Positions 31,941 to 49,330 of a stretch of DNA of 64,000 nucleotides are shown piece by piece. Source of the DNA: Alphaproteobacteria bacterium (GTDB taxonomy: Bacteria > Pseudomonadota > Alphaproteobacteria > UBA828); NCBI GenBank assembly GCA_965237415.1, contig CBDEFM010000001.1:64001-128000 (forward strand), given 5' to 3'. Below the pieces are notes generated by a model. The model had not been told where the DNA came from. It did no database searches and saw only the letters and a list, made by a program, of their open reading frames with translations. The position numbers were made by a program, and so were the translations under genes. The first letter of the stretch is position 1, and each line of letters opens with the position of its first letter.

Positions 31941-32523
31941 GTGACACCCGCGCCAAGGGCCGAGCGCCTGCGCGATCACTTCATCGGCTGGCAGTGCCGG
32001 ATACGTGCCGACGCCATGCGCCGCCGGGCCGGGCGGCCGTCGCGGGGGATGTGCCCAGAGGTGCTGAGCGCGGCAGGCGACACGCTGGCACCGGCGGTGA
32101 CGACGCTCCTCGTGCGGCGCGAGGCCGACTCCTTCGCGGCCGAGTTTCGCCATCTGATACGGCGCACCCACGATCCGCGGGATCGGCGCGAGGCGGCGCT
32201 CGCGCTGCTGGCCGAGCGCTACTACCAGTATGCGCGCGGCTTCAGCGACCTGCTGACGGCGACCTTCGCGGCCGACTCAGCCCTTGCCGCCGATCTAGTG
32301 CGGGAGGGCCGCTGCGTCCTGGCCTTCGATCAGGACAGTCAGCGCTACGCGCTACCGTGCTCGGTGGCCTTGCTCGAGACCGCCGATCCGCGCCGCGAGG
32401 AGACCTGGTGGCACAACGCGCTGTTCAATCCGCAGCTCCCGCCGGAACGTGCCCGTCCTGGCCTTCGCCCCCCGCTGGCTGGAGGCTGTCGCCGACCCCG
32501 CGCCTGACCGGGGGCGGTCATAG
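31941..32523 (+). CDS. Hypothetical protein with probable frameshift near 32446 (in-frame stop 32507, shifted-frame stop 32523)
   Basis: Protein-like sequence (LRDHFIGWQCRIR..., WWHNALFNP). The shifted frame gives VPVLAFAPRWLEAVADP with coding-like GC3 usage. Confidence 0.6.
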
Positions 32524-33682: not shown

Positions 33683-33707
33683 CGCTCGCCTCCGTCACCC
33701 CCTACGT

Positions 33708-33942: not shown

Positions 33943-34039
33943 ATTTTATGTTGTAAAATAAGGGGCTACGCGAAATTGGGTTCGTTTTGTAATTTTTCCG
34001 TTTGCGCCGCCGACCCGCTGCTCCGGCGAGCCATCCGAG

Positions 34040-34432
34040 CTAAAACTTCCGATACACCCCGTTGAGGTCGGCCATGGGGTGGCGGGGCGACATCTGGAAC
34101 TTCACCAGCAGCTCGCGGGCGAGCATGTCGCGGTCCTGCTGATTGTCGGGCAGCTCCAGGTTCTCCGGCACCGAGACCCAGCCGTTGATATTGCGGTCGA
34201 ACACCGCCGGCCGGCCTTCCTCGTAGCCCATGTGGACGTCTTCCAGCCAGTTCAGGTCGGTCCAGCCCATGGTCTCGATATAGCGCTTGAGGAAGGGCGT
34301 GAGCCGCTGGTAATCCGGTACCAGGTTCACATCGTAGCGATAGCCGATGTGCTGGCCGATCTCCTTCTCGCGCTCGCTGTCGAGGCCGCTCTGGCTCAGG
34401 TAGTAGTCGACGTCGCCGGTCTTATCGCTCAT
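34040..34432 (-). CDS. Hypothetical 130-aa acidic protein, last gene of the glx-like operon
   Basis: GGAG RBS before ATG 34432, 17 bp after the upstream stop; coding-like codon usage; no recognisable family. Confidence 0.8.
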   Translation of the reverse strand: MSDKTGDVDYYLSQSGLDSEREKEIGQHIGYRYDVNLVPDYQRLTPFLKRYIETMGWTDLNWLEDVHMGYEEGRPAVFDRNINGWVSVPENLELPDNQQDRDMLARELLVKFQMSPRHPMADLNGVYRKF

Positions 34433-34449
34433 GGCGCATCTCCGGGCTG

Positions 34450-35817
34450 CTAGTAGCGGTTCATGTCGGGGCGGCCGACGGTGTGCTGGGAGCCCGCGAG
34501 CGGCACCTGGGCCATGGCGGAGGCCTCCATGGTGAGCGCGGCGAGGTCCTCCGGCTCCAGGCTGTGGACATCGGTCTTGCCGCAGGCGCGCGCCATCATC
34601 TGGCACTCCAGCGTCAGCGTGTGGAGGAAGTTGTAGACACGCTCCGCCGCCTCGTCGGGGTCGAGCCTCTTGCGCAGCTCCGGGTCCTGAGTGGCGACGC
34701 CCACAGGGCAGCGCCCGGTGTGGCAGTGATAGCAGTAGCCGGCCTCGACCCCGATCTCGGACTCGTAGTCGGCCTCCGGAATGTCCTTGTTGCAGTTGAG
34801 CGCCATCATCACCGAATGCCCGATGGCGACCGCGTCGGCACCCAGCGCGAGCGCCTTGGCGATGTCGCCGCCGTTGCGGACCCCGCCGGCGTAGACGAGG
34901 CTGATGCTTCCGGTGGCGCCGAGGTCGTCCAGCGCCTTGCGCGCCTGGCGGATCGCCGCGATGCCGGGCACGCCGGTCTCTTCGGTCGCGAGATGCGGGC
35001 CGGCGCCGGTCGAGCCCTCCATCCCGTCGATGTAGATGCTGTCCGGGCCGGTCTTGATCGCCATGCGCACGTCGTCATAGACGCGCGCCGCGCCGAGCTT
35101 GAGCTGGATCGGAATCTCGCTGTTGGTTGCTTCGCGGATCTCGTTGATCTTGAGCGAGAGGTCGTCCGGCCCCAGCCAGTCGGGATGGCGCGCCGGCGAG
35201 CGCTGGTCGATGCCGGCCGGCAGCGAGCGCATCTCGGCCACCTGGTCGGTCACCTTCTGCCCCATCAGATGGCCGCCGAGCCCGACCTTGCAGCCCTGGC
35301 CGATGAAGAACTCGCACGCATCGGCGAGCCTCAGATGGTGAGGGTTGAAGCCGTAGCGGGACTGGATGCACTGGTAGAGCCACTTCTCGGAGTAGCGGCG
35401 CTCGTCGGGGATCATGCCGCCTTCGCCGGAGCACGTGGCGGTGCCGGCCATGGTGGCGCCGCGCGCGAGCGCGGTCTTGGCCTCATACGAGAGCGCGCCG
35501 AAGCTCATGCCGGTGACATAGACCGGGATGTCGAGCACCAGCGGGCGCTTGGCATTGGGCCCGATCACCGTCGTCGTTGTGCACTTCTCGCGGTAGCCCT
35601 CGATGACGAAGCGCGTGAGCGTGCCCGGCAGGAAGGTCAGATCGTCGAAGGTCGGGATGTTCTTGAAGAGCGAGAAGCCGCGCATCCGGTAGCGGCCGAG
35701 CTCCGCCTTGATGTGGATGTCGTCGATCACCTCGGGCGAAAAGATGCTGCTTCGCCCCAGAATATGCCGGTTGCGGCTGGGCCGGTTGGCGACGGCTTCG
35801 CGTCTGTCGCTGGCCAT
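34450..35817 (-). CDS. FMN-binding glutamate synthase family protein (GlxD/MgsC-like)
   Basis: GMSFGALS, SGEGG, GQG.K.GLGGHL, SP.RHPD, IDG.EG.TGA and CHTGRCPVGVATQDP motifs. Confidence 0.9.
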   Translation of the reverse strand: MASDRREAVANRPSRNRHILGRSSIFSPEVIDDIHIKAELGRYRMRGFSLFKNIPTFDDLTFLPGTLTRFVIEGYREKCTTTTVIGPNAKRPLVLDIPVYVTGMSFGALSYEAKTALARGATMAGTATCSGEGGMIPDERRYSEKWLYQCIQSRYGFNPHHLRLADACEFFIGQGCKVGLGGHLMGQKVTDQVAEMRSLPAGIDQRSPARHPDWLGPDDLSLKINEIREATNSEIPIQLKLGAARVYDDVRMAIKTGPDSIYIDGMEGSTGAGPHLATEETGVPGIAAIRQARKALDDLGATGSISLVYAGGVRNGGDIAKALALGADAVAIGHSVMMALNCNKDIPEADYESEIGVEAGYCYHCHTGRCPVGVATQDPELRKRLDPDEAAERVYNFLHTLTLECQMMARACGKTDVHSLEPEDLAALTMEASAMAQVPLAGSQHTVGRPDMNRY

Positions 35818-35855
35818 GGCGGACTCCTTGCAGGGTAGCGAGAGGCCGCGCTCGC

Positions 35856-36707
35856 TCAGAGCGCGATCTTCTTCTCGGCCGGCTCGAGGTTGTCGTAGTT
35901 CCAGAGCTGCTTGCCGGCGACGATCTTGGTCAGGTTGCCGACGCCGTTCGGCGCCTCCATCCCGTAGGCCGCGAGCTTTCGCTCGAGCCAGCCCGCCTCG
36001 ACATCGGTGATCTCGCCGGGCACGGCATCGACGCCGAGGGAGGCGATGGTGCCGCCGACGAAGATCGTGCCGTCATAGAGCGAATCGCCGAGGTTGGGGC
36101 CGGCGTTGCCGAGGATGACGATGCGTCCGCGCTGCATCATGAAGCCGGTGAATGCGCCAGCACGGCCGCCGATGAGGATGGTGCCGCCCTTCATGTCGAT
36201 GCCGGTGCGGGAGCCCACATCGCCCTTGCAGACGAGGTCGCCGCCGCGCAGTGCTGCGCCGAAGGTGGAGCCCGCGTTCTTCTCGATGACCACGACGCCC
36301 GCCATCATGTTCTCGGCGCAGGACCAGCCGACGCGGCCCTCGATGTGGACGTTGGGGCCGTCGATCAGCCCGCAGCCGAAGTAGCCGAGGCTGCCCTCGA
36401 AATCGAGCTTCAGCCGATTGAGGATGCCGACGCCGAGGGAATGCTTGGCCAGCGGGTTCTGGACCACGATGTGGCCGTAGCCCTCGCCCATCAGCTCTCG
36501 GATACGGAGGTTGACGGCGGGCCCCTCCATCTCCGCCGCGTCGATCGTCGCCTTCTTGGTGAAATCGACGTCGAAGCCTTCGGGATAGGTGTAGTTGTCG
36601 CCCTCTTCGGGGGAGAAGAAGACCTGCTGGGTGCGGCCGGCGAGCTGCTCCGCGTGCAGCCCCATGTCATGGGATTTGTGCCGGTCGGCGGGGCTCAGTT
36701 CTGCCAT
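35856..36707 (-). CDS. GXGXG beta-helix protein (GlxC/MgsB-like)
   Basis: Repeated G..G...G..M.GG motifs; GDSLYDG.IFVGG. Confidence 0.88.
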   Translation of the reverse strand: MAELSPADRHKSHDMGLHAEQLAGRTQQVFFSPEEGDNYTYPEGFDVDFTKKATIDAAEMEGPAVNLRIRELMGEGYGHIVVQNPLAKHSLGVGILNRLKLDFEGSLGYFGCGLIDGPNVHIEGRVGWSCAENMMAGVVVIEKNAGSTFGAALRGGDLVCKGDVGSRTGIDMKGGTILIGGRAGAFTGFMMQRGRIVILGNAGPNLGDSLYDGTIFVGGTIASLGVDAVPGEITDVEAGWLERKLAAYGMEAPNGVGNLTKIVAGKQLWNYDNLEPAEKKIAL

Positions 36708-37651
36708 ACCTTGACCTCCCCCTCGTAGGGGTCCCAGGTGTCGATCTCGTCGGGCATGATGCCGCGAATGGCCACCTCCTCGGAGGCGAGGCCCACAAAA
36801 TCGTCGCTCTCGTAGAGCACCATGGGCTTGGCCGCCATCATGTCCTTGGCCATGCCCAGGCTATCCGCCGTCGCCACCAGATAGGTGAAGACGCCGTCGA
36901 GCTCGCTCACCGAGCGAACCATCGCCTCCTTGAGCATGTCGCCGTGTTCGATGCGGTCGGCGAGGTAGACGGCGATCAGCTCTGAATCGCAGTTCGACAT
37001 GAAGCGATGGCCCCGGTGCTCCAGCGCCCGGCGGAACTTCCAGTAATTCGTAAGCTGGCCGTTGTGGACCAAGGCGATATCGTTGAAGGGATAGGCCCAG
37101 TAGGGATGGGCCGAGCGGATATCGACGTCGGATTCCGTCGCCATCCGGGTGTGGCCGATGGCGTGGGTGCCCTGGAACCCGGCGAGGCTGTACTGCTCGC
37201 TCACGATGCTGGCGTCGCCGAGGTCCTTGATCAGCTCCAGCGCGTGGCCGAGGGAGAGGATCTCCGCCCCCTCGACATCCTCGATGTAGTCGGCGAAGCG
37301 CTTGAGCCGCTGCTGGCCGCCATCGTCGTCACCGGGGAAGCGCAGGCGGTAGCGGAACGCATATTCGGTGGCCGCGTCCTCGTCGAGGATCTCCACCTCC
37401 ATGCTGCGGATGCGCGCATCCACCTCCGCCTTGCGATCCTTGATCTGCTGGTGGATTTCGAAGCCTTTGCCGATGTCCTCCTGCTCCGCCACCTTGAAGC
37501 GCATCACATGGTTGTTCTCGACCGGAACGCCGTAGAAGGCGAAGCCGGTGGAATCCGGCCCCCGATGCTTCAGGGCCTGGAGCATCGTGGTCATCTCCGC
37601 CCCGATGTCGCCGCTCGATCCGCGGTGGATCAGTCCTGCTATCCCGCACAT
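36695..37651 (-). CDS. Class II (Ntn) glutamine amidotransferase (GlxB/MgsA-like)
   Basis: MCGIAG, RGPDSTG, GHTRMATES, AHP, HNG and DSE motifs. Confidence 0.9.
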   Translation of the reverse strand: MCGIAGLIHRGSSGDIGAEMTTMLQALKHRGPDSTGFAFYGVPVENNHVMRFKVAEQEDIGKGFEIHQQIKDRKAEVDARIRSMEVEILDEDAATEYAFRYRLRFPGDDDGGQQRLKRFADYIEDVEGAEILSLGHALELIKDLGDASIVSEQYSLAGFQGTHAIGHTRMATESDVDIRSAHPYWAYPFNDIALVHNGQLTNYWKFRRALEHRGHRFMSNCDSELIAVYLADRIEHGDMLKEAMVRSVSELDGVFTYLVATADSLGMAKDMMAAKPMVLYESDDFVGLASEEVAIRGIMPDEIDTWDPYEGEVKVWQN

Positions 37652-37674
37652 GGGCGCCTCGTCTTTCGATTTGG

Positions 37675-39144
37675 TTAGGGCAGGCAGTCGAGATAGGTCT
37701 CGACGTCCCACTCGGTGACGGTGGACATGAAGCGTTCCCACTCGTCGCGCTTGTAGTGCAAGAAGACGCGGAGCATCTCGTCCGGCAGCGCGGAGTTGAT
37801 CACCTCGTCTCTCTCCAGCGCGTCGAGCGCCTCGCCAAGCGACATCGGCAGCTTCTTCACCTGCTTGCCGGCCTCCATGGCCTGGTAGATATTGCGCTCC
37901 TCTGGCTCGCCTGGGTCCAGATTGCGCGTGATCCCGTCGTCGAAGGCCTTGAGAATCGTGCCGGCCATCAGGTACGGATTAACCATCGAATCGACCGAGC
38001 GGTACTCGAAGCGCCCCGGCGCCGAGACGCGCAAGGCGCAGGTCCGGTTCTGGTAGCCCCAGTCGGCGAAGACCGGCGCCCAGAAGCCGGTATCCCACAG
38101 CCGGCGGTAGGAGTTCACGGTCGACGAGCCGAGGGCGGTGAGAGCCGCAAGATGCTCCATCACCCCGCCGATGCAGTTGAGGCCGACCGGCCCGGGCTTG
38201 TGGGAGTCGAGGGACGGGTCCGGCATGAACAGGTTCTCGCCGCCCTTCCAATAGCTGAAGGTGTCGTCCATGCCGGCGACCGGGTCCTGATGGAGCGTGT
38301 TGACCCGCTGCTCGCCACCCTTCCAGAGCGAGACGTTGTGATGGCAGCCGCTCGCCGAGACCCCCATGAAGGGCTTCGACATGAAGCAGGCGATGACGCC
38401 GTGCTCGCGGGCCACCTGGGCGCAGATCTGGCGATAGGTGGTGAGCCGGTCGGCGGTCCTGAGCGCGTCGTCGAAGGTGAAGTTGAGCTCGAGCTGTCCG
38501 GGCGCGTCCTCGTGGTCGCCCTGAATCATGTCGAAGCCCATGGCCTGGGAATACTCGATCACCCGCATGAAGATCGGCCTGAGCTCCTCGAACTGGTCGA
38601 TGTGGTAGCAGTTGGGCTTGGTGACGCCGCCGTCGGTCTTGCCGTCCGCGCCGCGCTTGAGCCACATCATCTCGGGCTCGGTGCCGTGGCGCATCTGCAT
38701 CCCGTGCTTGGCCTGGAACTCCTCGTGAAGGATCCGCAGATTGCCGCGGCAATCGGAAGTCAGGTGCCCGCCCGGGTTCTCCCGCTCCTCCCGGTTGCGG
38801 AAGCAGGTGCAGAAGACGCGCGCGACGCGCTTGTCCCAGGGCAGCTGCACGAAGGTCTCGGGGTCGGGGATGCCGACCAGCTCGGATGCTTCCGGCCCGT
38901 AGCCGATGTAGTTGGAGTGGCGGTCGGTGAAGAGGTTGGCTGTCGAGCCGTAGACGAGCTGGAAGCCGCGCTCGGCGATCTGTTCCCAGTGATCGGCGGG
39001 GATGCCCTTGCCGACGATCCGCCCGGTGACGGAAACGAACTGATAGTAGATGTAGGTAACGCCGAGATCGTCGATCTTGGCGCGCACCTGCCGCACCAGC
39101 TCGTCGCGTCCCTCCCTGTTCACATGGGCTTCAAGATCGGTCAT
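37675..39144 (-). CDS. Glutamine synthetase family gamma-glutamyl-amine ligase (GmaS-like, divergent)
   Basis: GTEPE, HED.PGQ.E, KP...SGCHH, NSYRRL, WG.QNR and EYR..D...NPYL motifs. Confidence 0.88.
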   Translation of the reverse strand: MTDLEAHVNREGRDELVRQVRAKIDDLGVTYIYYQFVSVTGRIVGKGIPADHWEQIAERGFQLVYGSTANLFTDRHSNYIGYGPEASELVGIPDPETFVQLPWDKRVARVFCTCFRNREERENPGGHLTSDCRGNLRILHEEFQAKHGMQMRHGTEPEMMWLKRGADGKTDGGVTKPNCYHIDQFEELRPIFMRVIEYSQAMGFDMIQGDHEDAPGQLELNFTFDDALRTADRLTTYRQICAQVAREHGVIACFMSKPFMGVSASGCHHNVSLWKGGEQRVNTLHQDPVAGMDDTFSYWKGGENLFMPDPSLDSHKPGPVGLNCIGGVMEHLAALTALGSSTVNSYRRLWDTGFWAPVFADWGYQNRTCALRVSAPGRFEYRSVDSMVNPYLMAGTILKAFDDGITRNLDPGEPEERNIYQAMEAGKQVKKLPMSLGEALDALERDEVINSALPDEMLRVFLHYKRDEWERFMSTVTEWDVETYLDCLP

Positions 39145-39177
39145 CTCCGCATCCTCCCCGGCGATCGGCGGGTCTCG

Positions 39178-40521
39178 TCAGCTCCACGGGAAGGGGCTGT
39201 TGGAGACCGGGTGAAGGCGACCCTCCGCAAAGCGTGAGAAGCGGAAGGGCTCGAGCAGGGCGCTCTCGCGGCCCATCAGCTCGTCCGCAACCAGCTTGCC
39301 GACGGCGAGCATCTTGTAGCCGTGGTTCGAATCGGCGATCACGTAGCAGTTCTCGCGGAAGCGGTCGAACACGGGGAAGCTGTCGGCGGTGAACGCACCG
39401 ATTCCGCCGGAGGGCTCATCGAGCCAGCGCCCGATCTGACCCTTATAGCGGCTCTGGCAGAGGGCGAGCGCCGAGCACCACATCTCCCTGAACTCGTCGT
39501 CGACGACGAATTCCGGCGATTCCGGCCCGTAGGGGTCGATCGCCACGTCGGGCACCGGGGTCTCCACCTTGTAGGGGGCGGCACCGCCCTGGATGCCGCC
39601 GAAGTTGAAGTCCGGCTTGTAGTAGATGCCCCACATCTTGTCGGTGATCAGCCTGCCGTCCACGTCGGAGTAAAGCGGCTCGTCGGAATCGACGTGGATG
39701 ACCGGCGGCATCGACCCGTCGTCGGCCATGCCGAAGGAGGGCTCGACGGCGAGCGTGCCTTCCTGAAGGCACCAGAAACGCCACATATCGACATCGGGGT
39801 GGAGCGTGCCTTCCAGGTCCTTGACGTCGATCCGATCCGGCAGATCGAGCATGTCCCAGATGCGCGGCACCCAGGGGCCGGCCGCGACGACGACCTGATC
39901 GACGCCGATGCTTCCCTGGTCGGTCTCTACCGAGGTCACCGCCTTGGAGTTGGCGCCGAAGCCGAAGCCCTTGACCTCGACCCCGGTGAGGATGCGGACG
40001 CCGGCGCCCCTCGCCTTGTCCGCAAGGCCTAGCATCGAGGCCCGGTTGTTGGCGTATCCGCCCTTCTTCTCGTGCAGGATGGAGGTGATGCCCGGCGCCT
40101 GCCAGTCGCCGAACAGGCGCCGCATGTACGCCGTACAGTCGGCCTCGCCCTCGATGAATTCGGACTCGTAGCCGATCGCCCGCTGCTGCTGCGCGATCTC
40201 GGCGACATCGGCATGCATGCTCTCGGGGCTGATCTGCATGTAGCCCACGGAATGGTAGTGATAGGCCTTGGGATCGCTCTCCCAAGCCTCCACGCAGGCC
40301 GCCATCAGCTCGCGCATCGCCGGCTGGAAGTAGTTGTTGCGGACGACGCCGCAGGCGATGCCGGAGGCGCCGGCCGCGATGTCGCTCTTGTCCACAATCG
40401 CGATGTCGGCACCGCTGCCGTTGCCCTGCGCCTTCAGCCCAAGCGCGAGGTGGTAGGCGGTGCTGAGGCCGTGGATTCCGGCCCCGATGATCAGATATTT
40501 GACGTGCCCCGGAAGCGTCAT
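39178..40521 (-). CDS. FAD-dependent oxidoreductase (DAO / sarcosine oxidase beta-like)
   Basis: IIGAGIHGLSTAYHLA, GVVRNNY, VVAAGPW, TAD.FPV and HGYK motifs. Confidence 0.88.
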   Translation of the reverse strand: MTLPGHVKYLIIGAGIHGLSTAYHLALGLKAQGNGSGADIAIVDKSDIAAGASGIACGVVRNNYFQPAMRELMAACVEAWESDPKAYHYHSVGYMQISPESMHADVAEIAQQQRAIGYESEFIEGEADCTAYMRRLFGDWQAPGITSILHEKKGGYANNRASMLGLADKARGAGVRILTGVEVKGFGFGANSKAVTSVETDQGSIGVDQVVVAAGPWVPRIWDMLDLPDRIDVKDLEGTLHPDVDMWRFWCLQEGTLAVEPSFGMADDGSMPPVIHVDSDEPLYSDVDGRLITDKMWGIYYKPDFNFGGIQGGAAPYKVETPVPDVAIDPYGPESPEFVVDDEFREMWCSALALCQSRYKGQIGRWLDEPSGGIGAFTADSFPVFDRFRENCYVIADSNHGYKMLAVGKLVADELMGRESALLEPFRFSRFAEGRLHPVSNSPFPWS

Positions 40522-40564
40522 CTGTGCGCTCTCTACCGCCGTAGATCGGCCGATTGTCGGGGGC

Positions 40565-40690
40565 GCACTCAAGCGGGCACCCTCACATTTGTCAAGCCAA
40601 TTATGGTCCGACCGGATCGACCAATTATGAACCAATATGAATGAATGGTTGAACGTTGCGTCGAAATTGATTAAAGCAATAAGGTCCACC
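40565..40690. promoter_or_regulatory. Divergent promoter region with FadR/GntR-type operator candidates
   Basis: Minus-strand TTGACA at 40595-40590; TGGTCCGACC at 40604-40613; CCAATTATG twice plus ACCAAT; AT-rich. Confidence 0.55.
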
Positions 40691-40787
40691 GACCGGCTTC
40701 GTGACGTATGCCGTCGTTGCGAGGGCGATTGGGCCAGGGGTTGTCAGGCGGAGCGGAGTGGAGCGAAGCATGCGACAGGCTGGCGCG

Positions 40788-41510
40788 ATGGAGGCAGGAA
40801 GCATACGGCCCGGCGGCGAAAATATCGGTACGCCGCGGACAGCCGATTCGGCAGCAGACGCGATCACGGCCCAGCTCGCGCAACGAATCCTCGACGGCTC
40901 TTTCGCGATGGGCGACCGCCTGCCGCCGGAGCGGAGCCTCGCCGAATCCTTCTCGGCTTCACGCGGCACGGTGCGCGAGGCCCTGCGTTCGCTGTCGGCA
41001 CGCGGGCTGGTGGCGCGCCGGGTGGGTAGCGGCACCTTCGTCATCTACGAGCCGGACGTCGGTGAGACCGATGTCTCCGAAATCACCTCGCCGCTCGAGC
41101 TGGTCGAGGTCCGGGCCGCTATCGAACCGCAGATGGCCAGGCTTGCCGTGCTCAACGCCACGGCGCGCGACATGGCTGCACTGGAGCGCGCGGTCGCCGA
41201 GATGGAAGGCGTGGCGGACGCCGAGAGATTCTCGCTCGCCGACGAGATGTTCCACTTGCGGCTGGCGGAGGCCACCCACAATCCCCTGATCGTCGAAATC
41301 TATCACCGCATCAACCACGTCCGCGCCCACCAGCAGTGGGACTCGATCAAGGACAAGATCCTCACGCCCGCGCAGATCTCCGCCTACAACGCCGAGCATC
41401 GCGCCCTTCTCGCGGCGCTCTCCCGCCGCGATGCCGACCGTGCGGTGGAAGTCGTCTCCGCCCACATGGAGCGCGCCCGCGCCGATCTGCTGGCCAGCAC
41501 CGGCGGCTGA
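40788..41510 (+). CDS. GntR/FadR family transcriptional regulator (FCD domain)
   Basis: GDRLPPER.LA..F..SR.TVREAL, GSGTFV, D..FH..LA.AT.N and EH motifs. Start uncertain. Confidence 0.9.
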   Translation: MEAGSIRPGGENIGTPRTADSAADAITAQLAQRILDGSFAMGDRLPPERSLAESFSASRGTVREALRSLSARGLVARRVGSGTFVIYEPDVGETDVSEITSPLELVEVRAAIEPQMARLAVLNATARDMAALERAVAEMEGVADAERFSLADEMFHLRLAEATHNPLIVEIYHRINHVRAHQQWDSIKDKILTPAQISAYNAEHRALLAALSRRDADRAVEVVSAHMERARADLLASTGG

Positions 41511-41714
41511 ACCGCCCCGCCAACAACGGGCGCGGATACTGCGGGGCATCCCCGGGCAATTTCGGGATGAGCCTTCGCGGCGATTGTGTTTAGATTGGCA
41601 GGATGATCGCCTCCGTAACGATTCGGAGAGCGCTTGGCGCGTCATGACCGTTAGTTGCCGCCTGCACGGGGCTGGACGCGGGCCCCACCGCGCGGCGCCA
41701 CAGGGGAGACGACC

Positions 41715-42908
41715 ATGAACGAGGACAAACTTCTCAAGCAGATGCTAAAGCGCGACCCGGTGCGCGGCGCGGCCGCCACCAGGCGTCAGGTGCTCCAGGG
41801 GATCGGCGCCGGCGCGCTCGCGCTGGGCGCGGGCAGCGCCCTCACGGGACGGGCGCAGGCTGCCGACAACCTCGCGATGCTGACCTGGGACGGCTACGTG
41901 GATCCGCGCGTGCTCGACGGCTTCACCGACCAGTACGGAACCGGCATCGACTACGAGCTGCACACCTCGGACCCGGATTCGGTCAACAAGCTCCGTGCCG
42001 GCGAGACCAAGATCTGGGACATCATCAACCTGAATAACCCGTGGGCGCGTGAGATTATGTGGCCGGAAGGGCTCATCATCGAGCTCGACCGCGCCCGCTT
42101 CGATCCCTACTTCGAGGCGATGCTGCCGATGTTCCAGCCGCCCTACAAATGGGCGATGAGCCTCGACAACGAGCATCTGCTGGGGGTCTGCCAGCGGGTC
42201 GACACCTTCGACTTCGTGGTCAACACCGATATCGTCTCGGCCGATATGGCGAAGGACGAGGGCTGGGATCTCTTCAACAATCCCGACATGGCCGGCCGCT
42301 ACGGCATCCTCGCCTACGACAACTGGAACATCATGCACATCTGCATGGCCGCCGGCCTGCATCCGTTCAAGGAGAAGACCGACGACCAGGTCGCCACCTT
42401 CGAGGAGGCGGCGCGGCGTCTCATCAACGGCGCGAAGATGATCTCGGACGATTTCGTCGCCGTGAACCTCGCCGTGGTCAACGGCGAGATCGACATGTAC
42501 TTCGGCGGCGGCACCTATTCGATCTCGTCAGCCCGGCTCGACGGGCTCACCAACCTCTACCACGTGGTGCCGAAGAGCGGCCCGGCCGACGGCAAGGGCG
42601 GGATCAACTGGATCGAGCTCAACTCGGTGGTTAACAATCCCGACCTTCATCCCCAGGCCATGGACTGGATGGAATACATCCTCCAGCCCGACACCTCCTA
42701 CGCGGTCGCGACCGCCGGCGGCTTCCTGCTCCCGGTGGGGCAGATGGCACAGCCGGAGCTGCTCGACAAGTTCTCGGCGGAGGAGCTCGACTCCTTCCAG
42801 TGGGACGAGTTCGACTACCGCATCTCGCACTCCGTCGAGTACGACGTGGTGCCGGACTACAACCGGCTCTACGACATCTACACGGCGGCGCGGCGCGAGA
42901 AGTCGTAA
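41715..42908 (+). CDS. Tat-exported PotD/PotF-like ABC substrate-binding protein
   Basis: TRRQVL twin-arginine signal, LTWDGY and KLRAG motifs; first gene of the ABC operon. Confidence 0.85.
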   Translation: MNEDKLLKQMLKRDPVRGAAATRRQVLQGIGAGALALGAGSALTGRAQAADNLAMLTWDGYVDPRVLDGFTDQYGTGIDYELHTSDPDSVNKLRAGETKIWDIINLNNPWAREIMWPEGLIIELDRARFDPYFEAMLPMFQPPYKWAMSLDNEHLLGVCQRVDTFDFVVNTDIVSADMAKDEGWDLFNNPDMAGRYGILAYDNWNIMHICMAAGLHPFKEKTDDQVATFEEAARRLINGAKMISDDFVAVNLAVVNGEIDMYFGGGTYSISSARLDGLTNLYHVVPKSGPADGKGGINWIELNSVVNNPDLHPQAMDWMEYILQPDTSYAVATAGGFLLPVGQMAQPELLDKFSAEELDSFQWDEFDYRISHSVEYDVVPDYNRLYDIYTAARREKS

Positions 42909-43031
42909 GCCCTGCCGGCTGCGGCGGGGGCGCGCGGCGGCTGACGCAGCGCGCCCCCGCTACGACCGCACGCCCGGCCGGCCCCGGCCGGGCGTCAGCG
43001 CCCTTGAAAAGAGAGGATCGAAACGAGCGCC

Positions 43032-44099
43032 ATGGTGGATGCCGCGCCCATCCTGCGCATGGTCAACCTGACCAAGCAATTCGGCCGACTGGTCGCGGTG
43101 AACGACGTTTCCCTCGACATCCAAGAGGGCGAGTTCTTCACCATCGTCGGCCCGTCGGGGAGCGGCAAGACCACGCTGCTCCGCATGCTGGGGGGCCTGG
43201 AGAAGCCGACGGCGGGCGACATTTACTTGCGCGAGCAGCGGGTCAACGCGGTGCCCGCCAACCGGCGCCCGACCTGCATGGTCTTCCAGTCCCTCGCCCT
43301 CTTCAATCACAAGACGGTCGGCCAGAACATCGAGTTCTCGCTGAAGATGCGGGGCGAGAACCGCCGTGCCCGCCGCGAGCGCGGCCTCTCGCTCATGAAT
43401 GTGGTCCAGCTGCCGGAGGACTTTTACGACAAGTCCGTCACCAAGTGCTCGGGCGGTGAGCGCCAGCGCGTGGCGCTCGCCCGCGCGCTTGCCTCCGACC
43501 CCGAAATCCTGTTCTTCGACGAGCCGCTTTCCGCCATCGACTATCGCCTCCGCAAACTGCTGGAGGTCGAGCTCAAAGACCTCCACCGCACCACGGGCAA
43601 GACCTTCGTCTACATCACCCACTCGCTCGAAGAGGCGATGGTGATGAGCGACCGCATCGGGATCATGCAGGAGGGGCGCCTGATCCAGATCGGCTCGCCC
43701 AACGAGATCTACCTGCAACCGCGCAACAAGTTCGTCTCGGAGTTCATGGGCGAGGTGAACACGTTTGCCGTGCGCGTGGGCGCGGATGGCGGCATCGACT
43801 GCCCCCACTTCGAGCGCCGCTTCACCAGCCCGGCCCACCCGGATGGGTTTAGCGACGGCTATCTCGTGATCCGGCCCGAATCGATGCGTTTCCTGAACGA
43901 CGCCTCGGAGGCCGAGAACCATCTCGAGGGATCGCTCTTCAACGAATACGCGCTCGGCTCCCGGGTGCAATATCACGTGAGCGCCCGCGGCATGATGTTC
44001 GTCGTCGAGAAACTCCGCGAGCAGGCCTATCGGGGCGGGCTCAACGAGGACGTTCTGATCGGCTGGGACGCCAAGGACAGCGTGCTCGTGGCCGACTGA
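43032..44099 (+). CDS. PotA-like ABC ATP-binding subunit
   Basis: GPSGSGKT, SGGERQRVALARAL, DEP and ITH motifs; TOBE-like C-terminus. Confidence 0.93.
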   Translation: MVDAAPILRMVNLTKQFGRLVAVNDVSLDIQEGEFFTIVGPSGSGKTTLLRMLGGLEKPTAGDIYLREQRVNAVPANRRPTCMVFQSLALFNHKTVGQNIEFSLKMRGENRRARRERGLSLMNVVQLPEDFYDKSVTKCSGGERQRVALARALASDPEILFFDEPLSAIDYRLRKLLEVELKDLHRTTGKTFVYITHSLEEAMVMSDRIGIMQEGRLIQIGSPNEIYLQPRNKFVSEFMGEVNTFAVRVGADGGIDCPHFERRFTSPAHPDGFSDGYLVIRPESMRFLNDASEAENHLEGSLFNEYALGSRVQYHVSARGMMFVVEKLREQAYRGGLNEDVLIGWDAKDSVLVAD

Positions 44100-45010
44100 T
44101 GGCTGACCGCGCGGAGACGCCTGCGGCAATCATCCGGCAGCCGGGGGCCGGGTCGCTTCTGCTGGGCTGGCTGTGCTCGGCGGGCGTGCTCAGCGCGACC
44201 CCGGTGCTCGTCTTCTTCCTGATCGGCTTCGTCGGCCCGCTGGTGATCGTGCTGGCCTTCAGCTTCACCCCGGAGCGCACCTTCGACCTCGGCGCTGGCT
44301 TCACAACCGAGAACTACGAGCGCATCTTCACGGAGAGCTACTACATCTCCTTCATCTGGTCGTTTGCGCTGGCCGGCGTCACCGTCGCCTGCAACCTGCT
44401 GATCGGCTACCCGATCGCCTACGGCCTCACCAAGCTCTTCGGCCGCTGGGCGGCGCCGGTCATGCTGGTGCTCGTCATTCCCCTCTTCGTCTCCGAGAAC
44501 GTGCGGCTCTTCGGCTGGTATCTCTTCCTGATCAAGGGCGGCGGCATCCTGGCGGGTGGGCTCAAGACCTTCGGCATCGACACCGGCACGATGCTCTATA
44601 TGCCCGGCACCATCCTGATGGGCATGATCTACGTCTATCTGCCCTTCACCCTCTTCCCCATCGTGCTCGGGCTCTCCATGGTGCCGGGCGATCAGGTCGA
44701 GGCCTCGCGCGACCTCGGCGCGAACCGCTTTCAGATCTTCCGCGAGGTGGAACTCCCGATCGCCATGCCCGGCATCCTCATCGGCGCGCTGCTGACCTTC
44801 GTGCTGGCGGTGGGCGCGATCTCCGAAGCCAAGCTCCTCGGCGGCCAGAACACGCCGGTCATCGCCCAGGACATCCAGCACGAGTTCACCTACGCCCAGA
44901 ACTGGCCGCTGGGGTCCGCGATCTCGGTGCTGGCCATCGTCGTCACCGGCATCCTCGTGGTGGTGGTGATGCGCCGGCTCGACCTCGACCGGCTGCTCGG
45001 CCGACGATGA
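44099..45010 (+). CDS. PotB-like ABC permease
   Basis: GYPIAY, YLPF...P, EASRDLGA and NWPLGSA motifs. Confidence 0.9.
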   Translation: MADRAETPAAIIRQPGAGSLLLGWLCSAGVLSATPVLVFFLIGFVGPLVIVLAFSFTPERTFDLGAGFTTENYERIFTESYYISFIWSFALAGVTVACNLLIGYPIAYGLTKLFGRWAAPVMLVLVIPLFVSENVRLFGWYLFLIKGGGILAGGLKTFGIDTGTMLYMPGTILMGMIYVYLPFTLFPIVLGLSMVPGDQVEASRDLGANRFQIFREVELPIAMPGILIGALLTFVLAVGAISEAKLLGGQNTPVIAQDIQHEFTYAQNWPLGSAISVLAIVVTGILVVVVMRRLDLDRLLGRR

Positions 45011-45031
45011 CACGCATGGGCGGGCGCTGAG

Positions 45032-45838
45032 ATGGAGAACAAGCGCTGGGTCATAAGCCTGATCGCGGTCTGGACCGGCGCGGTCGCGCTCTTCCTCTAC
45101 ATCCCGATCTTCTCGGTCATCGTCACCTCCTTCGGCAAGTCCCGCTACTTCCGCTTTCCCGTGAAGGCCTGGAGCGACAAGTGGTACGACCAGACGCTCG
45201 GCGCCAACCTGACCACGGACCTCCACCTCACCTCGTTCTATGTCGCGGGCTGCGTCGCGCTCATTGCGGTCGTGCTGGGCTTCTTCGGCGCTTTGGCCTT
45301 CGCCCGCTACAACTGGCGCGGCCGCCAGTTCTATCAGCGCCTCATCATGCTGCCGATCTTCTTCCCGCAGGCCGTGCTCGGCCTCGCGCTCCTGCTCTGG
45401 TTCACTTTCGTAGGCGTGCTGCCGAGCTGGGAGGCGGCGGTCTTCGCCCATCTGGTCTGGATCGTGCCGATCGTGACCCTCGTGATCTCGATCCAGGTCT
45501 ACGGCTTCGACGTAGCCCAGGAGGAGGCGGCCTACGATCTCGGCGCCAACCGCTGGCAGGCCTTCCGCGAGATCACGCTGCCGGCGCTCGCACCCGGCCT
45601 CTTTTCCGGCGCGCTCTTCGCCTTCCTGCTCTCCTGGGGCAACTTCCCGCTCTCGACCTTCACCACAGGCGCCGACAGCACGGTGACCGAATGGCTCTAT
45701 ACCAAGATGGGCGGCGGCTACACGCCGATGATCCCGACCATGGGCGCGCTCTCGGTGTTCGGCGCCATCGCCATCCTCTTCGGCGGCTACATGTTCCTGA
45801 TCGTCCACCGGCGCCGCCGGCTGGAGCGCGGCGATTAG
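45032..45838 (+). CDS. PotC-like ABC permease
   Basis: LFLYIPI...V.SF, WY and EEAAYDLGA...AFREITLP motifs. Confidence 0.9.
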   Translation: MENKRWVISLIAVWTGAVALFLYIPIFSVIVTSFGKSRYFRFPVKAWSDKWYDQTLGANLTTDLHLTSFYVAGCVALIAVVLGFFGALAFARYNWRGRQFYQRLIMLPIFFPQAVLGLALLLWFTFVGVLPSWEAAVFAHLVWIVPIVTLVISIQVYGFDVAQEEAAYDLGANRWQAFREITLPALAPGLFSGALFAFLLSWGNFPLSTFTTGADSTVTEWLYTKMGGGYTPMIPTMGALSVFGAIAILFGGYMFLIVHRRRRLERGD

Positions 45839-45925
45839 CCGGAGCCATGACGAACCAACGGGGGAGTTGTCTCGCCCCGCGCATCGCGCTCTAATCCCCC
45901 CGACTTAGCGCCACAGGAGCAACCG

Positions 45926-46228
45926 ATGGCCTACCAAGTCACGGAAAAGGACCTTTACGTCGTCGACGAGTTCATGGCCAAGCCGATTGGCCACCACAGC
46001 CCCAACTTGCAGCGGGTGCTCAATACGTTGAGGGGAGCGGACGTAAAGGGCAAGCACTGCCTCGTCTGCACCAAGCCCGGCCGCGAGTGGCGCCTGGCCC
46101 AGCTCTCCGGCGTGCGCGGCAAGCCGGTCAAGCTGCTCGACAAGACCTTCGACAATATCGAGGACGCCGAGCGCTACGTCTTCCGCCTGCGCTGGAAGCA
46201 GCACACCGGCAAGGCGTTGCCGAAATAA
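45926..46228 (+). CDS. N,N-dimethylformamidase small subunit-like protein
   Basis: E...P.G.HS..L.R.LN..R and F.....AE..VF..R pattern; directly upstream of the large subunit; AGGAG RBS. Confidence 0.75.
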   Translation: MAYQVTEKDLYVVDEFMAKPIGHHSPNLQRVLNTLRGADVKGKHCLVCTKPGREWRLAQLSGVRGKPVKLLDKTFDNIEDAERYVFRLRWKQHTGKALPK

Positions 46229-46290
46229 CCGCCGCGCGAGCGGCCCTCTTTACCACCGACAATCTACCGCCAGGCCCTGGGGAGCTACAC

Positions 46291-48543
46291 ATGACCAGAA
46301 TCGCGGGCTATGCCGACCGCGTCAGCGTGACGCCGGGAGAGACCATCAACTTCATGGTGAGTTGCGAAGCTCCCTCCTACAAATGCGACATCGTCCGCCT
46401 CGTCTGCGGCGACGAGAACCCCGACGGCCCCGGCGTCAAGGAGAAGGTGGTCAGGACCGGCGCGAGCGGCACCTACAAGGGGCGCCGCCAGGTCTGCTAC
46501 GACGGCTCCTTCATGGAAGTTCCGGCTCATCCCGCGATCCAGGGGCTGGAGAGCTTCACCATTCAGGCGTTCATCTGGCCGACGACGCCCGATCGCGGCA
46601 CCCAGGCGCTGATCTCCAACTGGCGCGATCGCGACAAGGCAGGTGCCGCGCTCATCATCACCAAGAAGGACGGCTCGCTCGCGCTCTGCCTCGGTGACGG
46701 TAAGGGCGAGATCGAGGTGATCGCCACCAACCGACCGCTGATCGCGCACCAGTGGTACTTCGTCGCCGCATCCTACGACGCCGAGTCGAAGCAGGTGACG
46801 CTGGTGCAGCAGCCGCTCAACGAATACCCCAATGTGGACCACGGCCGGACCTTGAGGAAAAAGTCTGCGCTGAGCGGGCCGGGCAAGCACGACGCACCAC
46901 TCACCATGGGCGGCCACTTCAAGCGCGTGGATAAGGGGTGCACCGTCTGCGGCGGCTTCTACAACGGGCGCATCGACAGCCCCCGCATCGCGAACCGCGT
47001 GCTGAGCCCGGCGGAGATGGAGCTTGCCAAGACCCCTCCCACGCACGGATCGCTCGCGACAGCCGTGATCGGCGCCTGGGACTTCTCCCAAGGCATCACG
47101 ACGACGACCGCGACCGATCTCACCGCCAACGCTTTGCACGGCAGCCTCGTCAACATGCCGACGCGCGCCGTCACCGGCTGGTGTTGGGACGGCAGCGAGA
47201 TGAACTGGCAGAGCGCGCCGGAGCAGTACGGCGCGATCCATTTCCACGAGGACGACGTCTACGACGCGCGCTGGGAGGTCGATTTCTCGCTCACCTGCCC
47301 CAAGCGGCTGAAGAGCGGCGTCTACGCCGCGAGGCTCCGGGGCGAAGGCGGCGGCGAGGAATACATCCCCTTCGCCGTCCGCGCCCCGCGCGGCGCGGCG
47401 ACCGCGAAGATCTGCTTCCTGCTCCCCACCGCGAGCTACATGGCCTACGCCAACACCAACATGTCCACCAACATGGGCGCGGCGCAGATTCTCGCCGGCC
47501 GGCTCACGGTGCTGAATGAGAAGAACCTGCAACGCAGCGAGCACCGGGAATACGGCACCTCGCTCTACGACAGCCACATCGACGGCAGCGGCATCTGCTA
47601 CTCCTCGCGGCTCAGGCCGATCCTGAACTTCCGCCCGAAGGCGCTGGAGTGGATCGGCGGCACCGAATCCACGCTCTGGCAGTTCAACGCCGACACGCAT
47701 CTGACCGAGTGGCTGGAAGCGCGGGGCTTCGAGTACGACGTCGTCACCGACGAGGACCTGCACTACGAAGGTCTGTCGGCGATCCAGGACTACACGGTCG
47801 TTCTCAGCGGCTCGCACCCCGAGTACCACTCGAAGGCGATGTGGGACGCGATGCAAGCCTATCAGCAGCGCGGCGGGCGGCTCATGTACATGGGCGCCAA
47901 CGGTTGGTACTGGCGCATCGCCTACCACAACGAGGTGCCGGGATGCATCGAGGTACGCCGCGCCGAGGACGGCATCCGTACCTGGATCGCCCGCCCCGGC
48001 GAGTACTATCACAGCTTCACCGGCGAATACGGCGGCCTCTGGCGGCGCAACGGGCGGCCGCCGCAGGTAATCGTCGGCACCGGCTTCAGCGCTCAGGGCT
48101 TCGACATCTCGTCCTACTACGTGCGCCAGCCGGACAGCTTCAAGCCGGAGGTCGCCTGGATCTTCGAAGGCATCGGCGAGGACGAGAAGATCGGCGATTT
48201 CGGGCTGATCGGCGGCGGCGCAGCAGGGCTGGAGCTCGACCGGGCCGACCCGCTGCTCGGCACGCCGCCCAACACCTACGTGCTCGCGAGCTCTGAAGGC
48301 CACACCGACCTCTACCTCGTGGTCTGCGAGGAGCTCGACGTGAACCGGCCCAATGCCGACGGCACGCAGGACCCGCTGGTGCGCGCCGACATCGTGTTTT
48401 ACGAGACCGCGAACGGCGGCGCGGTGTTCTCCACCAGCTCGATCGCCTGGTGCGGAAGCCTTGCCCACAACGACCACGACAACAACGTCTCGCGCATGAC
48501 CGAGAACGTCCTGCGCCGCTTCGCCGATCCGACCTCGTTCTGA
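46291..48543 (+). CDS. N,N-dimethylformamidase large subunit family protein
   Basis: GYADR.SV.PG, LamG-like domain, YGAIHFH.DD, SY.AYAN, SLYD.H.DGSG, HPEY, LMYMG.NG.YW and GLELDR motifs. Confidence 0.92.
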   Translation: MTRIAGYADRVSVTPGETINFMVSCEAPSYKCDIVRLVCGDENPDGPGVKEKVVRTGASGTYKGRRQVCYDGSFMEVPAHPAIQGLESFTIQAFIWPTTPDRGTQALISNWRDRDKAGAALIITKKDGSLALCLGDGKGEIEVIATNRPLIAHQWYFVAASYDAESKQVTLVQQPLNEYPNVDHGRTLRKKSALSGPGKHDAPLTMGGHFKRVDKGCTVCGGFYNGRIDSPRIANRVLSPAEMELAKTPPTHGSLATAVIGAWDFSQGITTTTATDLTANALHGSLVNMPTRAVTGWCWDGSEMNWQSAPEQYGAIHFHEDDVYDARWEVDFSLTCPKRLKSGVYAARLRGEGGGEEYIPFAVRAPRGAATAKICFLLPTASYMAYANTNMSTNMGAAQILAGRLTVLNEKNLQRSEHREYGTSLYDSHIDGSGICYSSRLRPILNFRPKALEWIGGTESTLWQFNADTHLTEWLEARGFEYDVVTDEDLHYEGLSAIQDYTVVLSGSHPEYHSKAMWDAMQAYQQRGGRLMYMGANGWYWRIAYHNEVPGCIEVRRAEDGIRTWIARPGEYYHSFTGEYGGLWRRNGRPPQVIVGTGFSAQGFDISSYYVRQPDSFKPEVAWIFEGIGEDEKIGDFGLIGGGAAGLELDRADPLLGTPPNTYVLASSEGHTDLYLVVCEELDVNRPNADGTQDPLVRADIVFYETANGGAVFSTSSIAWCGSLAHNDHDNNVSRMTENVLRRFADPTSF

Positions 48544-48577: not shown

Positions 48578-49330
48578 ATGAGCGGCCCCGTACTTGAGGT
48601 CGAGGCCCTCACCAAGCGTTTCGGTCCGGTGACCGCCGTCGATGCGTTGAGCTTCACGGTCGCCCGGGGGACGACCGCCGCCCTGCTCGGCGCCAACGGC
48701 GCGGGCAAGACCACCACCATGGCGATGATCCTGGGCCTGCTGCTGCCGAGCGCCGGCACGGTGCGCATCTTCGGCCGCGACCTGGCTGCCCACCGCTATG
48801 CGCTGCTGCCCCGCATGAACTTCTCCTCGCCCTATACAGACCTGCCGCATCGGCTCACGGTGCGCGAGAACCTGACCGTCTACGCCAAGCTCTACGGCCT
48901 CGACGGCGTCAGGCGGCGGATCGAGCGGATGGTCGAGACCCTCGACCTCGGCGCGTTTCTGAAACGGCCGACGGGCAAGCTCTCGGCCGGGCAGCGCACG
49001 CGGGTCGCGCTCGCCAAGGCGCTGCTCAACGATCCGGAGCTGCTGCTGCTGGACGAGCCCTCGGCCTCGCTCGATCCCGACACGGCCGATTGGGTGCGGG
49101 GCGTCATCGAGCGCTACCGCACCGAGACCGGCGCCACCATCCTGCTCGCCTCCCACAACATGGCCGAGGTCGAGCGGCTCTGCGACGACGTGTTCGTGAT
49201 GAGCGGCGGGCGCATCGTTGAGAGCGGCACACCAGAGGCCATGATCGAGCGCCGCGGCCTGAGCACGCTGGAGGAGGTCTTCCTCGAAATCGTGCGGGGC
49301 ACGGCCGGCCTCGGCGAGGCAGCGCAGTGA
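48578..49330 (+). CDS. ABC-2 type exporter ATP-binding protein
   Basis: GANGAGKTT, LSAGQ, LLLDEP and SH motifs. Confidence 0.9.
   Translation: MSGPVLEVEALTKRFGPVTAVDALSFTVARGTTAALLGANGAGKTTTMAMILGLLLPSAGTVRIFGRDLAAHRYALLPRMNFSSPYTDLPHRLTVRENLTVYAKLYGLDGVRRRIERMVETLDLGAFLKRPTGKLSAGQRTRVALAKALLNDPELLLLDEPSASLDPDTADWVRGVIERYRTETGATILLASHNMAEVERLCDDVFVMSGGRIVESGTPEAMIERRGLSTLEEVFLEIVRGTAGLGEAAQ

Follow-up and report, generated by a model that had tools for sequence, protein, structure and literature searches.

The window analyzed here is a stretch of 64,000 nucleotides from an alphaproteobacterial genome (GenBank assembly GCA_965237415.1, contig CBDEFM010000001.1). It contains a locus of 13 genes (34040..48543), organized as two arms that diverge from a common control region. 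The left arm, taken together with the GntR-type regulator gene opposite to it, is a separate, strongly conserved and widespread sister module of gmaS-mgsABC, the ligase and synthase genes of the N-methylglutamate (NMG) pathway, and this module is uncharacterized. The right arm codes for an ABC importer and a two-subunit amidase. The evidence is about evenly balanced on whether the locus is a recent, lineage-specific fusion of this amide importer-amidase unit with the methylamine-pathway sister module, by which a small amine is captured on glutamate. Full-text searches, with most subscription journals and supplementary files outside their coverage, returned no paper describing the module or the metabolism of gamma-glutamyl-dimethylamide or N,N-dimethylglutamate.

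From the enzyme families and their genomic company, the following catalytic steps may be proposed. The right arm would import a small N-substituted amide, most likely an N-methylated one, and an iron-dependent amidase would cut it into an acid and a small alkylamine. A ligase related to glutamine synthetase (GS) would attach the amine to the gamma-carboxyl group of glutamate, using ATP. Three synthase-like proteins, probably together with a protein of 130 residues (aa), would turn the glutamyl product into an N-alkylated glutamate. A flavoprotein of the DAO family and/or an Mgd-like dehydrogenase encoded elsewhere would then remove the alkyl group as a one-carbon unit, with regeneration of glutamate. 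The amine is most plausibly a methylated one, dimethylamine being favored over monomethylamine. Probably, the amine from the imported amide is consumed on the spot, in a sponge-associated alphaproteobacterium.

The left arm, a sister module of gmaS-mgsABC

Genes were called by codon-position G+C and inspection of start sites, and families were assigned by Pfam and NCBIfam scans. The original prediction for this locus had listed 13 genes, and the layout of open reading frames (ORFs) together with the family scans places each of them where it was listed. The spacing of the leftward genes, -13 to 38 nt, is what an operon would show.

The ligase gene (37675..39144, minus strand) codes for a GS-family protein (Gln-synt_C, E=3.2e-84), a candidate gamma-glutamyl-alkylamide synthetase. 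This ligase had been suspected to be divergent, which is borne out by its score of 325 bits on the GmaS model TIGR03105, below the cut-off of 469.6. A canonical GmaS is encoded elsewhere in the genome (C2:2808593; C1 and C2 denote the two contigs) and reaches 660 bits on the same model. Against the solved GmaS (7cql), the window ligase scores 188 bits and the genome's own canonical GmaS 638 bits. Solved glutamine synthetases and GmaS match the window ligase about equally well (188-211 bits). It is 28% identical to the canonical GmaS and 59 residues longer. In a tree of 11 module ligases, 11 canonical GmaS and 8 other GS paralogs of the genome, module ligases and canonical GmaS form separate clades (Shimodaira-Hasegawa approximate likelihood ratio test (SH-aLRT) support of 100 and 99); this tree comes from a quick search, and the GS paralogs sit on long branches. 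Because the ligase tree shows two clades, the module proteins are placed outside the canonical ones.

The active site is, nevertheless, of the GmaS type. An excerpt of the paper on GmaS (PMC7948447) gives its amine pocket as Y147, Q175, D177, E179, E186 and N188, with Trp300 where glutamine synthetase has its catalytic flap Glu. In the alignment to 7cql, all six pocket residues are kept in the window ligase (Y180, Q208, D210, E212, E219 and N221), and a Trp occupies the position of the flap Glu. The neighbors of the ATP site differ (Y174 to I, W189 to F, Y191 to F), and the window ligase has an insertion of about 24 residues after residue 276. These residues mark the window ligase as a putative gamma-glutamyl-alkylamide synthetase acting on a small amine, rather than as a glutamine synthetase, and the activity is predicted accordingly. 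The genome (G000) also carries an isolated fragment of 147 aa (C2:3424850-3425335, L089:6850-7293) with 60% identity to the C-terminal 150 residues of the ligase; it looks like the remnant of a second copy of the module.

Downstream of the ligase, three separate proteins are encoded, as in the NMG synthase: an MgsA-like Ntn class-II amidotransferase (36695..37651, minus strand) with GATase_6/7 domains and an MCGI (Met-Cys-Gly-Ile) start, an MgsB-like GXGXG protein (35856..36707, minus strand; PF01493, E=1.1e-14), and an MgsC-like protein with an FMN domain (Glu_synthase; 34450..35817, minus strand; PF01645, E=3.2e-88). Orthology to the canonical trio is not indicated, the identities to MgsA, MgsB and MgsC encoded beside canonical gmaS being only 28-36, 31-41 and 48-55%. 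Within the module, the corresponding identities between the window and other loci are 59-93, 63-94 and 83-99%. The description of the left arm as a paralog of the NMG pathway thus stands, given the two clades in the ligase tree, the 188 versus 638 bits to 7cql and the low identity of the trio.

No mgsABC of the canonical type was seen in the genome. The only other complete trio is of a third type, 38-42% identical to that of the window. It lies at C2:696508-699464 and was rejected as the genome's canonical mgsABC; its neighbors are genes for a GltD-like protein, LarA and an aldehyde:ferredoxin oxidoreductase. The full set (C2:693985-699464, L082) comprises an amidotransferase, a fused GXGXG-FMN protein and the GltD-like protein, with ThiS also encoded nearby. 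The only further relatives with a Glu_synthase domain are a lone copy (C2:2670403) and one within an ORF of 4.5 kb (C2:1255863). The third type (38-44% identical to the window trio) is found about 4 kb from canonical gmaS in 8 of 80 canonical-gmaS loci (L100, L120, L128, L129, L131, L134, L148 and L164), and L130 has only an MgsC-like piece (43%) at the edge of the locus.

The last gene of the operon (34040..34432, minus strand) codes for the conserved 130-aa protein. The original prediction had pointed to an orphan gene embedded in the pathway, and this gene proved to be a fixed part of the module, present in all 44 full-length loci. Over 28 sequences from several phyla, 39 columns are invariant. 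The AlphaFold2 (AF2) model is of moderate confidence, with a predicted local distance difference test (pLDDT) value of 74.9, and residues 40-130 are well ordered. There is no match to a Pfam or NCBIfam family. The fold is also without a match: Foldseek against the PDB returned nothing at E<=0.001, the best Z score in a wide VIA-align search was 3.0, and the ESM Atlas gave no usable match. The fixed position of the gene suggests that its product may be a fourth synthase subunit or an assembly factor.

The gene next to the control region (39178..40521, minus strand) codes for a DAO-family FAD oxidoreductase of 447 aa (PF01266, E=5.8e-35). It is distant from SoxB, scoring 63.5 bits on the soxB model (cut-off 529) with SoxB as the best PDB match (E about 1e-8), and it is 24-27% identical to the SoxB-like proteins of the genome. 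A four-subunit MgdABCD or heterotetrameric sarcosine oxidase is not encoded at the locus, which has this single DAO protein only. As had been reported before, the oxidase subunits and the genes for dimethylamine oxidation are missing from the window, where neither a SoxA/D/G-type subunit nor a HODM/Dmm gene was found (HODM, heme N-demethylase). Mgd-like SoxB/SoxA genes are, however, present elsewhere in the genome (C2:2905996-2910864), and SoxB/SoxA-like genes are also found at C1:433784-438384. It was also claimed that a single flavoprotein replaces Mgd. This is doubtful, because the DAO gene is missing from 18 of 44 full-length loci and the SoxB/SoxA-type genes are available elsewhere; the DAO gene is the first one of the module, but it is optional.

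A protein designated c9 often accompanies the module and is encoded in the window at 31941..32507 (plus strand). The protein has 188 aa and no match in Pfam or NCBIfam, nor a PDB sequence match at E up to 1. It had been considered as a small Dmm subunit, a candidate that was dropped in view of these missing matches. A suspected dmm cluster at C1:666669-668598 was also rejected; it actually consists of a GcvT-like gene and a c9-like gene. This region (G000 C1:666669-673885, L193) has a GcvT/DmdA-like gene, the second c9-like gene and then IS630 and IS256 transposases and a group II intron reverse transcriptase.

The distribution of the module was followed through relatives of the ligase in one genome per species. 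At least 588 were found, and the loci of the best 80 (74-95% identical) were examined; 44 of these are full-length, with at least 20 kb of DNA each. Carriers are Alpha- and Gammaproteobacteria (SUP05/Thioglobus, Arenicellales), Acidimicrobiia and others. All 44 full-length loci have the genes in the order ligase-MgsA-MgsB-MgsC-130aa. A GntR homolog is divergent from the module in 56 of the 80 loci and in 34 of the 44 full-length ones (42-56% identity; 80-90% in close relatives). The DAO flavoprotein gene occurs in 41 of 80 loci (26 of the 44 full-length ones), and c9 homologs (about 42% identity) are encoded within 10 kb in 34 of 80 (28 of 44).

The module may thus be compared with the NMG pathway as known from Methylocella, Methyloversatilis and Ruegeria pomeroyi (GmaS, MgsABC, MgdABCD). 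The domain set is the same, and so is the gene order, in which the ligase precedes a three-piece glutamate-synthase-like enzyme. Shared are also the GmaS-type pocket, the flap Trp and, elsewhere, the company of Tdm, Amt and Mgd. Peculiar to the module are the extra invariant 130-aa gene, an optional single DAO flavoprotein, c9 and a GntR regulator of its own.

Genomic company of the module and the candidate amine

Genes of methylated-amine metabolism recur around the module. Within 10 kb, the trimethylamine N-oxide (TMAO) demethylase Tdm (DUF1989+GCV_T) is encoded in 19 of the 80 loci, Amt-family transporters in 18, SoxA-like proteins in 9 and SoxB-like proteins in 10. These Sox-like proteins share 70-80% identity with MgdA from the neighborhood of canonical gmaS. 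Formate-tetrahydrofolate ligase (8 loci) and FolD (4 loci) are also found near the module, as are OpuAC-type transporters in SUP05 loci. Canonical gmaS directly adjoins the module in L102, L109, L135, L151 and L156. A full canonical mgsABC-gmaS set shares one contig with the module in L043/L126, and the two are found together in L101 and L162. For comparison, the usual order around canonical gmaS (80 loci) is mgd genes, mgsA, mgsB, mgsC, gmaS, and the trio is present in 40 of these. A more unusual substrate, other than plain methylamine or dimethylformamide, had been envisaged for the module. The genomic company does not favor an exotic amine but points to a plain methylated one as the likely substrate.

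To what extent the module coincides with individual steps was analyzed in 401 genomes of the class to which the window belongs. The module was found in 38, PF11927 in 47, Tdm in 33 and canonical GmaS in 64. PF11927 is the alpha subunit of the heme N-demethylase (HODM)/Dmm. Tdm occurs in 24 of the 38 genomes with the module and in 9 of the 363 without it. Among the 33 Tdm genomes, 22 have only the module, 7 only PF11927 (one being a weak match), 2 have both (one weak) and 2 have neither, one of the latter being 75% complete. The mutual exclusion of module and PF11927 in Tdm genomes has a Fisher p of about 3e-4; this value is not corrected for relatedness and therefore overstates the signal. In none of five further genomes with canonical gmaS adjoining the module was PF11927 found, and four of the five have Tdm. 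The window genome fits into this pattern. It codes for Tdm (1174 bits), and no match to PF11927 was found in it. Its canonical gmaS is solitary, beside ppk/ppx.

The original prediction was also to be judged by what else the genome contains. The outcome is mixed: the module proteins lie outside the canonical clades and PF11927 was not found, as that prediction had it, but Mgd-like genes do exist elsewhere in the genome.

This distribution is suggestive of a role of the module downstream of Tdm, with dimethylamine as the substrate, and it is also compatible with a second route for monomethylamine. According to an excerpt of PMC5520151, the fate of dimethylamine in TMAO-using bacteria that lack dimethylamine monooxygenase is an open question. 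We tentatively propose that the module may provide an alternative dimethylamine route, via N,N-dimethylglutamate, where DmmABC is lacking (the SAR11-type "bottleneck", Lidbury et al. 2017), and that in the window it may be fed by an importer and an amidase which frees dimethylamine from a natural N,N-dimethyl amide. In such a route, the ligase would glutamylate dimethylamine, the MgsABC-like trio and the 130-aa protein would form N,N-dimethylglutamate from the product, and demethylation would follow. This specific proposal is considerably less secure than the assignment of the locus as a fusion. Compared with DmmABC(D)/HODM (PF11927), the module would then hold the same place in the catabolism of trimethylamine (TMA) and TMAO, and the distribution of the two among Tdm genomes is complementary. 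The module has, however, no sequence relationship to DmmABC(D), and the proposed chemistry is ATP-dependent glutamylation, not oxygenation.

Somewhat less probable, and in our opinion unlikely, is that the module is a second, isofunctional NMG route for monomethylamine, with an amidase that frees methylamine from an N-monomethyl amide such as N-methylformamide; this reading comes close to the original prediction. The conservation of all six GmaS-type pocket residues would fit such a route. The genome has a canonical GmaS without a canonical-type MgsABC, so that the module trio may be its only NMG synthase. Furthermore, the solved dimethylformamidase (DMFase) from Paracoccus frees dimethylamine or methylamine from formamides and also hydrolyzes N-methylformamide (an excerpt of PMC7686228). 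On the other hand, 28 of the 38 module genomes also keep canonical GmaS, genomes of 1.3-1.4 Mb included, which indicates that the two are not redundant. Complete canonical mgsABC-gmaS sets coexist with the module in the cases named above (L043 and L126, on one contig, and L101 and L162), and among Tdm genomes PF11927 is complemented by the module, not by canonical GmaS. Two points weigh against dimethylamine as the substrate. Five genomes with Tdm and the module have no match to canonical GmaS, which fits a module that handles monomethylamine, and the complementarity of module and PF11927, apart from being uncorrected for shared ancestry, comes from a survey in which dimethylamine dehydrogenase was not searched for.

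The importer-amidase arm and its joining to the module

The rightward genes start with that of the GntR/FadR-type (FCD) regulator (40788..41510, plus strand; PF00392, E=4.8e-22; PF07729, E=5.6e-27), followed on the same strand by four importer genes. These code for a PotD-like solute-binding protein (SBP; 41715..42908, SBP_bac_8) that is predicted to be exported by the twin-arginine translocation (Tat) system (leader TRRQVL...AQA), a PotA-like ABC ATPase (43032..44099; ABC_tran, TOBE_2) and the PotB-like (44099..45010) and PotC-like (45032..45838) permeases, both BPD_transp_1. The architecture is the same four-part one as in the spermidine/putrescine importer PotABCD, whose subunits provide the nearest named models; the window binding protein differs by its Tat leader. 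All four score far below the cut-offs of the equivalog models (PotD 38.7/582, PotA 293.8/482, PotB 151.5/348 and PotC 122.9/326 bits). PotD is also the best PDB match of the binding protein (E=9e-8). An assignment of the ligand from solved relatives was given up, as these are too distant to be used.

The amidase consists of a small subunit of 100 aa (45926..46228, plus strand; 6lvb_B, E=0.005) and a large subunit of 750 aa (46291..48543, plus strand; PF20254, E=5.5e-104), a predicted mononuclear-iron enzyme of the DMFase family. It shares with DmfA1/DmfA2 (EC 3.5.1.56; 6lvb), which are encoded on pAMI2 of Paracoccus aminophilus and on pLVM1 of Methylobacterium sp. DM1, the small and large subunits, the LamG-like and DMFA2_C domains, and the Tyr-Tyr-Glu iron site with a nearby His. 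The window small subunit is shorter than the solved chain 6lvb_B (132 aa). The large subunit matches the solved DMFase (6lvb_A, E=1.4e-188) and also an N-acetyl-(R)-beta-phenylalanine acylase (8huy, E=1.1e-161). An excerpt of the DMFase paper (PMC7686228) lists Y399, Y440 and E521 as ligands of the iron, with H519 close by; all four are kept in 15 of 15 family sequences, that of the window included. The same excerpt describes F693 as narrowing the pocket and shutting out larger amides, and this residue is Val in the window amidase and its orthologs.

With respect to the annotation as dimethylformamidase, the earlier assignment holds at the level of the family but not of the ortholog. The window large subunit is 44-45% identical to DmfA2 of pAMI2 and to the enzyme from Methylobacterium DM1, which are 84% identical to each other. 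In a tree of 15 sequences, it groups with its own paralog C2:1487k and a Burkholderia homolog (the latter on a long branch), away from the DMFase clade. From its sequence, the window amidase is thus a member of the DMFase family and not a DMFase ortholog. It is very improbable that the locus is a genuine operon for the degradation of the solvent dimethylformamide (DMF), comparable to dmfR-dmfA1A2 of Paracoccus and Methylobacterium. The two-subunit architecture and the conserved iron ligands would agree with such an operon. The degree of identity, the different clade and the Val in place of F693 do not, and the amidase is linked to an ABC importer and a GntR regulator, unlike those of pAMI2 and pLVM1, which are linked to the LuxR-type DmfR. 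In addition, DNA of the host appears in runs labelled as sponge metagenome and not in an industrial setting.

The genome has five more large-subunit genes of the DMFase family (C2:264235, 938919-941367, 1487854, 2949608 and 3053283), four of them with small subunits. The window small subunit is 31-45% identical to those of four other paralogs. Their contexts include a Liv-type ABC transporter, a phosphonate-type SBP, glutathione S-transferase (GST)/CoA-transferase genes and a luciferase-like monooxygenase. The paralog at C2:938919-941367 is broken into three frames and lies beside an integrase fragment.

The 13 genes had been described as one conserved system, and this view could not be upheld. 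The importer is encoded beside the module in only 2 of the 80 loci, L001 and L002, both from close relatives. The amidase large subunit is encoded within L001 only, that of L002 falling outside the locus. Conversely, amidase orthologs exist apart from the module (L182-L185). Sixteen amidase loci were compared (85-98% identical), 2 of which are too short to be judged. In 10 of the 14 informative ones, the fusion is as in the window (90-98% identity). Among the remaining four, L182 and L185 have SBP-PotABC-small-large without the module, and L183 and L184 have only the pair of small and large subunits; the L184 amidase and the module of that genome (L003) are separated by about 190 kb. Homology with the relatives ends exactly at the stop codon of the 130-aa gene. 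In five of the ten fused loci, an MttB-family methyltransferase gene and a LysR regulator gene lie between PotC and the small subunit. Such an insertion was recorded at L002:630-3304, and in the same gap in L172, L173, L176, L177 and L178 (MttB superfamily, E=1.3e-198); it places another methylated-amine-linked gene inside the right arm. In a 90%-identical relative without the right arm (L003:3811-7618), a Liv/AmiC-type ABC transporter (Peripla_BP_6) is encoded next to GntR, and Amt after the 130-aa gene.

Outside this clade, one more case was found. Of the 37 other module genomes, 16 have DMFase-family genes, but these are within 10 kb of the module in G227 only. This genome is from the same family but a different genus, and its amidase gene is convergent to the 3' end of the module. 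The paralog is 75% identical to the C2:264k copy and 47% to the window amidase. Co-occurrence of the two arms is thus confined to one narrow clade, with a single independent case that involves a different amidase paralog. Two structurally independent juxtapositions of amidase and module within one bacterial family are suggestive of a functional link.

We cannot give much more than a low probability, similar to that of the monomethylamine route, to the view that the arms are functionally independent neighbors. In this case, the right arm would be an operon sufficient in itself, dealing with a larger natural amide such as the N-acyl derivative of an amino acid or beta-amino acid, and would have come to lie beside the GntR gene of the module by chance. 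This view would account for the right-arm units without the module, the lone subunit pairs and the separation by about 190 kb described above, and also for the six amidase paralogs in varied contexts. The MttB and LysR genes inserted in five relatives would fit as well. Against it, 10 of the 14 informative loci retain the fusion, and a second, structurally different juxtaposition, with another paralog, exists in G227. The right arm is co-directional with the GntR gene of the module and has no terminator-like site in between, and a contig from RNA libraries spans GntR and SBP.

The control region (40522..40787) had been described as an AT-rich divergent spacer; it is real and locally richer in AT than its surroundings. 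It contains two ACCAATW boxes (40620-40626 and 40631-40637) and the palindrome GGTCCGACC (40605-40613). ACCAATT or its complement occurs three times in the 64-kb window, two of them in this spacer. In other genomes, 42 of 56 spacers between GntR and the module have it too, which makes it a candidate operator for the GntR regulator of the module. The palindrome GGTCNGACC was rejected as a conserved operator in favor of this box; it has 13 matches in 1.3 Mb of module loci, few of them in the spacer. A simple count of palindromes was uninformative. A scan for sigma-70 promoters and terminators returned one promoter-like and 9 terminator-like sites, no more than in shuffled sequences and none of them informative.

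The right arm follows GntR with gaps of at most 204 nt. As the 204-nt gap between GntR and SBP contains neither a box nor a terminator-like site, the right arm may be read through from the GntR promoter. Four metatranscriptome-labelled runs from three studies were compared with the window (contigs at a likeness of at least 95%). Contigs from these libraries cover both arms, and they bridge GntR-SBP (41181-42824) and the region from PotA to the large subunit (43151-46829, 43941-47485). Some of the runs that hold the window stretch are labelled as sponge metagenome.

Several observations weaken the case for a coupling of the two arms. The fusion is limited to one narrow clade, and in 78 of the 80 loci no DMFase-family gene was seen within the DNA available around the module; the same holds near the module for 36 of the 37 other module genomes, several of which are fragmented assemblies. 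With 4-6 amidase paralogs per genome, some chance adjacency is to be expected. Of the four outgroup loci, three were examined (L182, L183 and L185), and in all three a short-chain dehydrogenase (SDR) gene follows the amidase. In view of this neighbor, the Val at F693 and the acylase relative, the amidase may act on a larger substrate that has nothing to do with methylamines. The distance of the binding protein from PotD is too great for its ligand to be predicted. No ACCAATW box is found directly upstream of the SBP gene, that is, in the 204-nt GntR-SBP gap, and the RNA-library contigs may contain DNA and are no proof of a single transcript.

Surroundings of the locus and implications

The window has a G+C content of about 66% and is part of a 713-kb contig. 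The genome has 4.75 Mb in two contigs and is 96% complete. Because core genes (trpS, murJ, glnD, lpxA/I, relA/spoT and cobST) are also found in the window, the contig is not obviously a plasmid. On the left side, just past c9, the region 27380-31347 codes for an amidase-signature amidase, a gamma-glutamyltranspeptidase and an Asp/Glu-racemase/Amdase-like protein, which are possibly linked to gamma-glutamyl intermediates. Between c9 and the 130-aa gene (32507-34040), the coding signal is weak, and there is an ORF with a PIN_10 domain (33206-33682). On the right side, genes for an ABC ATPase and an ABC-2 permease (48578-50157) start 34 nt past the amidase. This ABC pair and cobT are kept in 11 relatives (L170-L179 and L181; the ABC ATPase is 88-99% identical) but not in L182-L185.

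Methylated amines are a major marine pool of nitrogen and of climate-relevant carbon. The module is common, being present in 38 of the 401 genomes of the class; it closely tracks Tdm and almost excludes the known monooxygenase. The locus ties this module physically to an enzyme family whose solved member frees dimethylamine or methylamine, and this narrows the candidate substrates. With six paralogs in this genome alone, the label "dimethylformamidase" in environmental genomes should not be taken to indicate solvent degradation. The 13 genes constitute a unit that can be expressed and assayed. If the module does act as a dimethylamine route, the locus would be an independent and genetically compact test system for this pathway.

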